Positions 17,983 to 20,456 of a DNA stretch of 64,000 nucleotides are shown in pieces (position 1 is the first letter of the stretch; each line of letters opens with the position of its first letter). This DNA is from Nitrospirota bacterium. GTDB taxonomy: Bacteria > Nitrospirota > Thermodesulfovibrionia > Thermodesulfovibrionales > Dissulfurispiraceae. The stretch lies in the NCBI GenBank assembly GCA_963790025.1, contig CAWBMP010000004.1:1600001-1664000 (forward strand), written 5' to 3'. The translations under genes and the position numbers were made by a program. The notes under the pieces were generated by a model that did no database searches, was not told where the DNA came from, and saw only the letters and a program-made list of their open reading frames with translations.

Positions 17983-18046
17983 AAAACTTTACTGCACGAA
18001 ATGCAAAACTTTATTGCACAATTCTAAAACTTTACTGCATCCTACA
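17983..18046 (-). mobile_element. putative Tn7-like transposon end inserted 1 bp after the gyrB stop codon
   Basis: Minus strand begins TGTAGGA, then TGCAGTAAAGTTTT (18039-18026), TGCAATAAAGTTTT (18018-18005) and TGCAGTAAAGTTTT (17996-17983), period 21/22 bp. Confidence 0.7.
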
Positions 18047-18047
18047 C

Positions 18048-20456
18048 CTATATATCAATATTCCTCGCCTCAAGCGCGTGCTTGGTGATGAATTCTTTCC
18101 TCGGCTCTACCTGATCGCCCATGAGCACGGTGAACATCTCATCCGCCTTCACCGAGTCTTCGACAGTAACCTGCAGAAAGGTCCTCTTGTCGGGGTCCAT
18201 GGTGGTTTCCCAGAGTTGGTGGGGGTTCATCTCTCCCAAGCCTTTATACCGCTGAATGGACAGCCCCTTCTTTGAAGTCTCGGTTGCTGTCGCAAGCAAT
18301 TCAGGCAAAGAGGTTATCTCTCTTGATTCGGTTTTCATTTCGAGATGGTACGGGGGCTGGCCGAAGGTCTGGATTAACTCCTTGTAATTGTCTGCCAGGT
18401 CCTTGAATTCGGGGGAAAGGACCAATGCGGTTGAGAGCTTGATCCTGTAATTCTGCCGCCTGATCGCAACTTCATAGGCCTCATGCTCCTCGTCAAAGAC
18501 TATGCCCTCGTGCTCCGTCGCCGGGTTTTTTTCCATTATCTTTTCCAGGAGTTCCCTGACCGCCGCCTCGCTTTTGAAACTGTCTTTATCTATGCCGAGA
18601 GTGAGAAGCTGCTTGATGACAAAGGGGTCTCTCCGCTTCTTTTCAAACCAGCCCATGCTTTTTTCATATTTGGAAATCTTTTTGAGATGCGGGATCAGCT
18701 TTTTGCCTCCGAGCTGCCCTGACGGTGTAGTTACCTTGAGGTCTTCGGTTGCAAGTTCAAAAAGCATTTCCATGAGTTCTGTCTCATTCTGAACATACTT
18801 CTCGGATTTCCCTTTCTTGATCCTGAATAGGGGCGGCTGTGCGATATAGAGATATCCCCTCTCTATCAATGCCGGCATCTGCCTGTAGAAGAATGTGAGG
18901 AGGAGCGTCCTTATGTGGGCGCCGTCGACATCGGCATCGGTCATCAGGACAATCTTATGATATCGTGCTTTGAGTGTATCGAACTCTTCGGGCCCTATGC
19001 CTGTGCCAAGTGCCGTTATCAAGGTCCTTATCTCTTCAGAGGTAAGCATTTTATCGAAACGTGCCTTCTCCACATTAAGGATTTTCCCGCGCAGGGGCAG
19101 TATCGCCTGGTAGCGCCTGTCCCTGCCCTGCTTTGCAGAGCCGCCGGCGGAGTCTCCTTCAACAATATACAGTTCGGACATGGCAGGGTCTTTTTCAGAA
19201 CAGTCCGCCAATTTGCCCGGCAACCCGGTGTCCTCCAGCACTCCCTTTCTCCTTGTCAGCTCCCTGGCCTTCCGTGCCGCTTCACGCGCCCTGGAGGCCT
19301 GTATGGCCTTCTCTATGATCTTCTTCGCTACGGAAGGGTTCTCTTCAAAGTAGGTGGAGAGAGCATCATTGGTGATCGATTCAACAATCCCTTTGACTTC
19401 GCTGTTGCCGAGTTTCATTTTCGTCTGCCCCTCGAACTGGGGGTTCGGGAGCTTTACGCTGATTACTGCAGTAAGCCCTTCCCTGATGTCGTCGCCAGAG
19501 ACGCTCTCTTTGCCCTCTTTGATGATCCCGGAGGATGTTGCATAACTGTTAGAGGTCCTTGTCAGCGCCGATTTAAAGCCTATAAGATGGCTGCCGCCTT
19601 CATGGGTATTGATGTTATTGGCAAAGGTGTATATGTTCTCCGCATAACTGTCGTTGTACTGTATGGCGATCTCGGCAATGACGCCGTCCTTTTCCTTTTC
19701 AATATATATGGGCTTGGGATGCAGTGGGGTTTTGTTCTTGTTAAGGTGTTCGACAAAGGAAACAATGCCCCCTTTATATAGAAAGATCTGGTTCTGACCG
19801 GTCCGTTCATCGTTAATGCTGATCTCCAGCCCCCTGTTCAGGAACGCGAGCTCCCTCAGCCGCTGTGCCAGGACGTCATAGTGGAACTCGGTGACTTCAA
19901 ATATCTGGGTGTCGGGCTTAAACGTTATCCTGGTCCCGCGCCCCTTTGTCTTTCCGGTGACAGCGAGCGGGGCTACCGGAACGCCCCTTTCAAAACGCTG
20001 GGTGTAAACAAGGCCTTCCTGCTTGACCTCCATTTCCAGCCATTCCGAGAGTGCGTTTACTACTGAGATGCCAACTCCGTGGAGTCCTCCGGATATTTTA
20101 TATGCAGTCGATTCGAACTTGCCGCCTGCGTGGAGTTCGGTAAGCACGATCTCCGCTGCAGTCCTTCCTTCAGGGTCGCCGGGATGGGGGCCTGTGGGAA
20201 TGCCCCTTCCGTTGTCAATGACTGTGCAACTGCCGTCATGATGGAGTATAACTTCTATATTCGTGCAATAGCCTGCGAGGGCTTCATCAACGCTGTTGTC
20301 AACCGCTTCATAAACAAGGTGGTGAAGTCCGTCAATGCTCGTGGACCCGATATACATTGCCGGCCGTTTCCGGACAGCATCGAGACCCTTCAGTATTTTT
20401 ATCTCTTCGGCCCCGTAGTGGCCGTTTGGTTCTTCAGTGTTACTGTCGTTCATCAA
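18048..20456 (-). CDS. gyrB: DNA gyrase subunit B
   Basis: [44 protein letters not shown]; intact C-terminus NIDI. Confidence 0.99.

Follow-up and report, generated by a model that had tools for sequence, protein, structure and literature searches.

Transposons of the Tn7 family carry characteristic ends, and we describe here a candidate for such an end next to the gyrase gene gyrB in a 64,000-nucleotide stretch of the Nitrospirota bacterium contig CAWBMP010000004.1 (positions 1,600,001 to 1,664,000; hereafter the window, whose own numbering is used throughout). The available text of the review by Peters and colleagues (PMC11406308) states that all Tn7 relatives make 5-bp duplications, that each end has a terminal sequence of about 8 bp, with TGT/ACA at its tip, before the array of TnsB sites, that the sites are usually closely spaced at one end and spaced at the other, and that the end nearest the attachment (att) site read by the TniQ-domain protein is the closely spaced one, which can be on the left or right of the element. 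The att genes reported for Tn7-like elements (in PMC11406308 and PMC11014353 among others) include glmS, parE, comM, nrdB, yhiN, guaC, rsmJ, ffs and tRNA genes. The first ~30 nt of both Tn7 ends were taken from the primers listed in PMC1475584, and the excerpt of PMC13049778 gives the 22-nt left and right inverted repeats (IRL and IRR) of Tn6230 with 5-bp direct repeats; in these sources the Tn7 and Tn6230 ends have an initial TGT and, six nt on, ACA(A/T)(A/T)A(A/T)AGT.

An original prediction, made from the letters of the window, had proposed a Tn7-like transposon end directly after the gyrB stop codon and gyrB as its attachment site. We consider it reasonably probable, from sequence comparison, that the 64-bp block at 17983-18046 is the putative closely spaced TnsB-binding end of a Tn7-family transposon that was once inserted 1 bp past the gyrB stop, that the terminator and the ~9-kb island behind it are the remains of this transposon, and that its tns genes and far end have been lost, so that it is now an immobile relic.

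Terminal sequence and tandem sites after gyrB

On the minus strand, 1 bp past the TAG of gyrB, the sequence reads ...ATT GAT ATA TAG g TGTAGGA TGCAGTAAAGTTTT agaattg TGCAATAAAGTTTT gcatttcg TGCAGTAAAGTTTT gttaagg, which agrees in every detail with the TGT terminus and the three tandem sites at 21/22 bp that had been described in the original prediction (Table 1). The only exact copy of TGTAGGATGCA in the 64-kb window is the terminal sequence itself. The cores of the sites are three exact 14-nt copies of TGCA(G/A)TAAAGTTTT, and repeat finding gave start-to-start spacings of 22 and 21 bp; perfect matches to TGCARTAAAGTTTT in the window number exactly three (18026-18039, 18005-18018 and 17983-17996, all on the minus strand), the next-best match having 2 mismatches. 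As background we used a survey of 80 related gyrB loci, the closest of which are from Thermodesulfovibrionia/Nitrospirota metagenome-assembled genomes (MAGs) with a GyrB identity of 70-78%, the window's own genome not being among them. On both strands of these loci (2.63 Mb), two CA.TAAAGT motifs 8-16 nt apart occurred 0 times and TGT.{5,8}CA.TAAAGT occurred 3 times, always isolated and without an array. Therefore, the site array is beyond chance expectation.

The hairpin of the predicted terminator begins four bases past the third site copy. Its 13 pairs and T run, which bear out the terminator expected at this place, fold with -18.3 kcal/mol (z -3.9), and 0 of 200 shuffled sequences fold as well. 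This is the first predicted terminator now encountered after gyrB, and no match to known RNA families was found in Rfam.

Table 1. Positions of the features discussed, numbered from the first letter of the window.
Feature	Position	Strand	Remarks
gyrB	18048..20456	-	802 aa, intact; TAG stop at 18050-18048
Flank of the terminus, CCTAT (+) / ATAGG (-)	18047..18051	.	5 bp; putative single copy of a 5-bp target duplication
Terminal sequence, 5'-TGTAGGA	18040..18046	-	Putative outer tip of the element; 7 nt long, preceding site 1
Site 1, TGCAGTAAAGTTTT and 7-nt variable tail	18019..18039	-	Candidate TnsB-type site; 7.8 bits (Tn7-derived matrix)
Site 2, TGCAATAAAGTTTT and 8-nt variable tail	17997..18018	-	Candidate TnsB-type site; 9.5 bits (Tn7-derived matrix)
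Site 3, TGCAGTAAAGTTTT	17983..17996	-	2.9 bits (Tn7-derived matrix); core matches, 3' half does not
Predicted Rho-independent terminator	17937..17979	-	13-bp stem and T run, immediately inside site 3; hairpin 17979-17947
AT-rich foreign island, 10 ORFs	9131..17684	9 ORFs -, 1 ORF (9131-9676) +	GC3 outliers
IstB relic	9000..9104	+	C-terminal tail of an IS21-family helper ATPase, in a 336-bp gap at the island far edge

Similarity to the ends of Tn7

The Tn7 copy on plasmid R721 (locus L081) served as the reference; its right end (Tn7R) has TGT and four sites (offsets 10, 30, 51 and 71), and three spaced sites make up the array of its left end. A weight matrix was built solely from these seven TnsB sites, none of them from the window, and both strands of the window and the 80 related loci (2,756,938 positions) were scanned for chains of three sites 19-23 bp apart. 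The window array had a chain score of 20.2, which was reached by 2 of the 2,756,938 positions, and ranked 2nd. When a TGT was required 7-10 nt upstream, it ranked 1st and the runner-up scored 12.0. Moreover, MAFFT placed the three window sites in register with sites 1-3 of Tn7R. In Tn7R a hairpin with a U run (R721, L081 15086-15134, plus strand; -18.2 kcal/mol, z -4.75) is present between the fourth TnsB site and the start codon of tnsA; the simple terminator scan missed this hairpin, whose stem is bulged, and folding revealed it. The window end consists of TGT, five nt and then GCAGTAAAGT, and the closely spaced end faces gyrB, in agreement with the arrangement given in the available text of PMC11406308. 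As judged by its sequence, the block most resembles a closely spaced end of the Tn7/Tn6230 type, and the core CA(A/G)TAAAGT of its sites agrees with the published ends of both Tn7R and Tn6230.

The gene next to the array was identified as gyrB and not parE, since the open reading frame (ORF) at 18048-20456 scored 999 bits with NCBIfam TIGR01059 (gyrB equivalog, cut-off 882) and both NCBIfam parE models scored under their own cut-offs. Its C-terminus aligned without gaps with 78 relatives and has the same length as theirs, which supports the claim that the gene was left intact. The best-conserved C-terminal coding block of GyrB, LMGDxVEPRRxFI, is located 39-75 bp from the putative insertion centre, and TnsD binds glmS at about such a distance from the Tn7 insertion point.

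Composition and content of the adjoining island

The genes that follow the array were predicted to be AT-rich and foreign, and this was confirmed: the GC content is 0.32-0.45 at ~9-18 kb and ~0.49-0.54 in gyrB, and all 10 island ORFs are outliers in GC content at third codon positions (GC3), with z from -2.3 to -4.5 against the 34 ORFs at or above 18048. GC3 drops at the terminus, from 0.63 in gyrB to 0.35 in the next ORF. With 10 of 10 ORFs of foreign codon composition, the array therefore bounds a compositionally foreign island of ~9 kb. The nine ORFs at 152-8794 are host-like (GC3 within 1.5 standard deviations of the reference), and the far boundary of the island is at roughly 8.8-9.1 kb.

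According to Pfam, NCBIfam, PADLOC and PHROGs, the island products are a DUF4760 protein, a SET-domain protein, an FMN reductase, a membrane protein, a radical SAM/SPASM protein, a pyruvoyl arginine decarboxylase and four proteins without a family, and no mobility genes were found in the island with these collections. Similarity to DNA in plasmid and phage collections was at chance level only (best E 0.1 for phages and 4 for plasmids). We also observed, at 12970-15095 on the minus strand, that the 534-aa radical SAM/SPASM protein is encoded directly upstream of the pyruvoyl-dependent arginine decarboxylase; it has a C-terminal extension of ~200 aa without a family match, and the PADLOC viperin-model matches to it cover only residues 9-214, the radical SAM region.

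At the far edge of the island, the IstB relic matched NCBIfam NF006616 (E 5.1e-4, profile positions 223-245 of 253) and Pfam IstB_IS21 (E 0.065), and tblastn matched it to annotated istB genes on plasmids. Its sequence is ...VVQITGKSYRLKD, and the 35-aa frame ends ...FLSRADVVQITGKSYRLKD. Neither istA nor other parts of istB were present beside the relic at 9000-9104. The IstB tail at this edge indicates that other mobile DNA was once active at the far boundary of the island. In the vicinity, an ORF of 43 aa at 8831-8959 (minus strand) starts MARPLRIKYPGAVYHVTSRGNEKK and is then cut short; it had no Pfam or NCBIfam match, and we take it to be like the N-terminus of IS200/Y1-type (REP-associated) transposases.

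gyrB loci of related genomes

Comparable repeats within the first 200 nt downstream were found in 0 of the 78 loci with a readable gyrB stop. In 68 loci the sequence extends at least 1.5 kb beyond gyrB, and in 49 of these gyrA is within 700 bp of gyrB; in the remaining 19 no Tn7 family domains were found downstream (within 7 kb), where 55 of 107 ORFs of at least 180 aa were scanned and overlapping or antisense ones were dropped. The window has the order dnaA-dnaN-gyrB, with parAB 13 kb further on. The upstream order of dnaN, dnaA, the RF2 gene and lnt is kept in the relatives (in L005 also kdsB and pyrG), and the gene order shared with the closest relatives ends at the 3' end of gyrB. No match was found between the downstream ORFs of the relatives and the window. 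Indeed, the insertion boundary could not be mapped through the relatives, as 0 of the 20 window ORFs below gyrB matched in conserved order and two weak matches were elsewhere in the loci.

One locus, L025 from a Nitrospiraceae MAG, has TGTAGGATGC at ~12508-12517, 47 bp past the gyrB stop, the same 10 nt as at the window terminus; it is isolated in a 226-bp gyrB-gyrA spacer with no array and is probably a coincidence. In a close relative (L006), an IS110-family transposase is encoded 0.6 kb downstream of gyrB (3212-4228, plus strand), and in another, L004, the contig breaks off 157 bp past gyrB. In this clade, the stretch behind gyrB seems to be unstable or hard to assemble. Upstream of gyrB in the window, the RF2 gene (23510-24330, minus strand) is listed from an internal ATG with 222 aa and a PCRF domain that starts at profile position 121; the frame is open upstream of the listed ATG, as expected given the usual programmed frameshift in prfB.

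Candidates for the partner end

CCTAT, the target duplication given in the original prediction, has 13 copies on the plus strand of 1-18046, two of them followed by TG (1650 and 17700). The latter would give a 342-bp "mini-element" at 17705-18046 with ATAGG flanks, and the former, CCTAT followed by TGT, a 16.4-kb element; 71% and 90% of null windows, respectively, scored as high, and since the right end is not matched by either inner flank, we rejected both. Two further candidates on the plus strand were also discarded: GCAATAAAGT at 16695 is within the intact SET-domain ORF and has a TGT at the wrong offset, and TGT with ACATTATAG at 8979-8993, at the island edge, has a spacer 2-3 nt too short, no further sites and a mismatched flank.

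Other features of the window

A sigma-54-dependent activator at 57685-59392 (plus strand) is split in two overlapping ORFs, 57685-58857 and 58796-59392. Its Sigma54_activat domain is interrupted at profile position 114/115, and around 58790-58800 the reading continues in another frame; either the gene carries a frameshift or the assembly is wrong here. The 448-aa ORF at 36495-37841 (plus strand) has an N-terminal response-regulator receiver and a full LpxC deacetylase domain, an unusual fusion. Two adjacent small glycine-rich membrane proteins of 108 and 115 aa at 6623-6949 and 6982-7329 (plus strand) are similar (MAKKGLY.G.G.GL.LF...) and belong to no family; from their sequences they look like tandem paralogues.

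Discussion

Several results weigh against a Tn7-like element at gyrB. Neither tnsA, tnsB (DDE/rve), tnsC nor tniQ/tnsD was found among the 21 ORFs at 1-18 kb and the 34 ORFs at 20-64 kb, no tns relics were found in the 55 intergenic frames examined (of 58 with 35 aa or more), and the sole island ORF of TnsB size encodes the radical SAM enzyme. No inverted partner end was detected in the 64-kb window by pattern, by alignment, by cluster/terminal-pattern scans or by three weight matrices on the plus strand. The array was absent from all 80 related gyrB loci and a Tn7-like insertion from all 68 with at least 1.5 kb downstream; the nearest relative has only 78% GyrB identity, so that no empty site was observed in a near relative. 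As for the sites themselves, one background chain scored higher than the array (22.5, inside the gyrB coding region of L058 and without TGT, a chance match). The Smith-Waterman alignment with Tn7R was unexceptional, its score of 13 being equalled by 589 of 109,528 background windows, and this local alignment is not discriminating as a significance test. In each site, the resemblance to the Tn7 sites is confined to the 5' half, and compared with Tn7 the terminal spacer lacks 1 nt.

Among these points, the absence of Tn7-like insertions in the relatives is weak negative evidence, because the relatives are distant (at most 78% GyrB identity). Of the Tn7-like transposon end in the original prediction, the anatomy, the site signature (matrix rank 2nd or 1st), the hairpin, the island boundary and the orientation stand; an element is not demonstrably present, as neither tns genes or their relics nor an inverted end were found in the window. 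The proposed element family targeting gyrB gained no second instance in the related loci, which belong to distant relatives, and no transposase, integrase or phage genes were found among the 55 main window ORFs. The array is probably a solo end and a dead remnant, because the transposition genes and the other end are missing, and we class it as a relic end rather than a transposon because the partner end, the tns genes and recurrence, which define an element, all failed to appear.

We presume that such a relic could have arisen as follows. A TnsB-type transposase would have made the insertion after gyrB, and a TniQ/TnsD-type selector that reads the conserved 3' coding block of gyrB would have placed it there; the AT-rich island would be the cargo of the element. 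The tns genes and the opposite end may have been lost later, possibly through rearrangements at the far edge, where the IS21 debris is found, and gyrB transcripts would now stop at the element-borne terminator.

Other explanations have to be weighed against the relic end. A complete and possibly active Tn7-like element of more than 18 kb, with its tns genes and other end beyond window coordinate 1, would account for the lack of a partner end in the 18 kb available; in the available text of PMC11406308 the att-proximal closely spaced end may be distant from the tns genes, and long Tn7-like elements exist, the accessible part of Benler et al. 2021 describing scans for ends up to 125 kb on each side of tnsB. 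However, the foreign composition ends at ~9 kb, with the ORFs at 152-8794 within 1.5 standard deviations of core genes in GC3, and IS21 debris marks the same boundary, and we regard a complete element as improbable. The repeats could also be a native, lineage-specific feature of the gyrB 3' untranslated region or the origin region, where a host protein would bind them as direct repeats of the operator or iteron type, spaced by two helical turns, and the likeness to Tn7 would be coincidental. The repeats are between the stop codon and the terminator and are therefore transcribed with gyrB, their spacing of 21-22 bp puts them on one helix face, the locus belongs to the dnaA-dnaN-gyrB and parAB region, and the 80 loci include no close relative that could show an empty site. 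Nevertheless, the match to independent Tn7 sites ranked 1st or 2nd of 2.76 M positions, TGT is at the expected offset, the foreign island starts exactly there and no Rfam family matches. Because the repeats are missing from all of the related loci, they are not a fixed feature of the wider clade, as the original prediction had allowed they might be; with relatives of at most 78% GyrB identity, a genus-specific element is possible. A native origin seems very unlikely to us.

The array might belong to another DDE element with multi-site TG...CA ends (IS21 family, Mu-like, Tn552 or Tn5053/Tn402). The IstB relic is in the window, and IS21 ends have tandem units at a TG...CA end, at least two repeats in ~55 bp with a terminal CA, and 5-bp duplications (as given in the available text of PMC11208146); TGT/ACA ends are found in IS481 too (available text of PMC11406308), and subterminal repeat arrays are noted for Tn5053, Tn5090 and Tn552 in the accessible part of Benler et al. 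2021. On the other hand, the one IS21-like element compared, a member on S. aureus p4456 with 52-nt ends, has unrelated sequence with two ATGTACA units ~26 bp apart, and its ends gave chain scores of -14.6 and -3.6 against 20.2, so that the match to IS21 that the original prediction had considered was not found. IS21 carries no cargo and has no site specificity; the accessible text of PMC11208146 describes it as without strong target preference, whereas 1 bp separates the window end from a stop codon. The IstB relic, at a distance of 9 kb, is on the strand opposite to that needed by an IS21 element owning the array, and no istA or istB is next to the array. A Mu-like element is opposed by the island length of only ~9 kb and by the lack of any phage family beyond generic radical SAM/flavodoxin-like matches among 11 island proteins. 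The IS21 alternative is weakened and not eliminated, because just one IS21 member was compared, and we rate an end of another DDE element as quite unlikely.

With the relic end as the preferred reading, gyrB is possible as a dedicated attachment site, which fits the geometry and rests on a single decayed instance. It appears doubtful to us, given this one locus, that the 3' coding end of gyrB is the att site for an undescribed Nitrospirota lineage of Tn7-like elements, in which a TniQ/TnsD-type selector would read the universally conserved coding block for VEPRRxFI and direct the element to the position 1 bp past the stop, with the window end as its first footprint. Tn7-like elements are reported in eight Nitrospirae species by Benler et al. 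2021. In the searched literature as far as its text was available (Tn7-like or TniQ with gyrB, gyrase or att site), gyrB or gyrase was not found as a Tn7-like attachment site; gyrB is not in the main texts of Benler 2021, Faure 2023 and the A. baumannii study PMC11014353, and gyrase was likewise absent in the two where it was sought.

If it is true, the gyrB site would be the counterpart of the parE and glmS sites, and the relic would supply the gyrB terminator. Target immunity is a feature of Tn7 biology, and we predict that the relic end, in that case, might still protect the site from further insertions of cognate elements. Tn7-like selectors recognise conserved essential genes and insert harmlessly alongside, so that each new att site offers a natural "safe harbour" and might be put to use for site-specific integration; a selector that reads the gyrB 3' end, if real, would have a very broad host range because gyrB is universal and near the replication origin. 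The remnant yields a pattern to search for (a gyrB stop followed by TGT and tandem GCARTAAAGT sites) and not a working system, and the case illustrates how a decayed mobile element can leave behind a clean end and a terminator that a host gene would now use. What we describe is a real, non-random solo end, like those of the Tn7 family, at the edge of a foreign island; as a kind of feature it is ordinary, and it hints at an attachment site that may be new.

Comparison with known systems

The right end of Tn7 at attTn7 shares with the window end the 5'-TGT terminus followed by contiguous sites with the core CA(A/G)TAAAGT, ~20-22 bp apart, the hairpin and U run after the last site, and the closely spaced end oriented toward the 3' end of an essential conserved gene that stays intact. 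However, Tn7 has four sites and the window three, the terminal sequence is TGTGGGCG in Tn7 and TGTAGGA here (with the shorter spacer), and the 3' half of the Tn7 sites (AAACT) is not conserved in the window sites. In Tn7, tnsA starts 134 nt from the tip, whereas no tns gene follows the window array; Tn7 adjoins glmS, whereas the window end adjoins gyrB, 1 bp after the stop codon.

The B subunit of topoisomerase IV is a paralogue of GyrB, and Tn7-like elements that target parE follow the same logic: the available descriptions suggest that their TniQ recognises the 3' end of the sequence coding for this B subunit, and an essential, conserved type II topoisomerase gene is kept intact. They differ in having a TniQ, which the window lacks, and the window gene is gyrB by curated models. 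The IRL of Tn6230 is TGT, 6 nt and ACAATAAAGTTGT, and the window end is TGT, 5 nt and GCAGTAAAGTTTT; aligned by eye, 15 of 22 columns are identical with one gap. Tn6230 differs in that tnsABCD and both ends are present and its att site is yhiN. In addition, the available text of PMC11014353 reports that Acinetobacter baumannii has, downstream of nrdB, decayed Tn7-like insertions whose ends are hard to recognise and which are, like the candidate here, degraded site-specific Tn7-like insertions adjoining an essential gene; as described there, the nrdB remnants keep some tns genes and have obscure ends, whereas in the window the end is crisp and the genes are gone.

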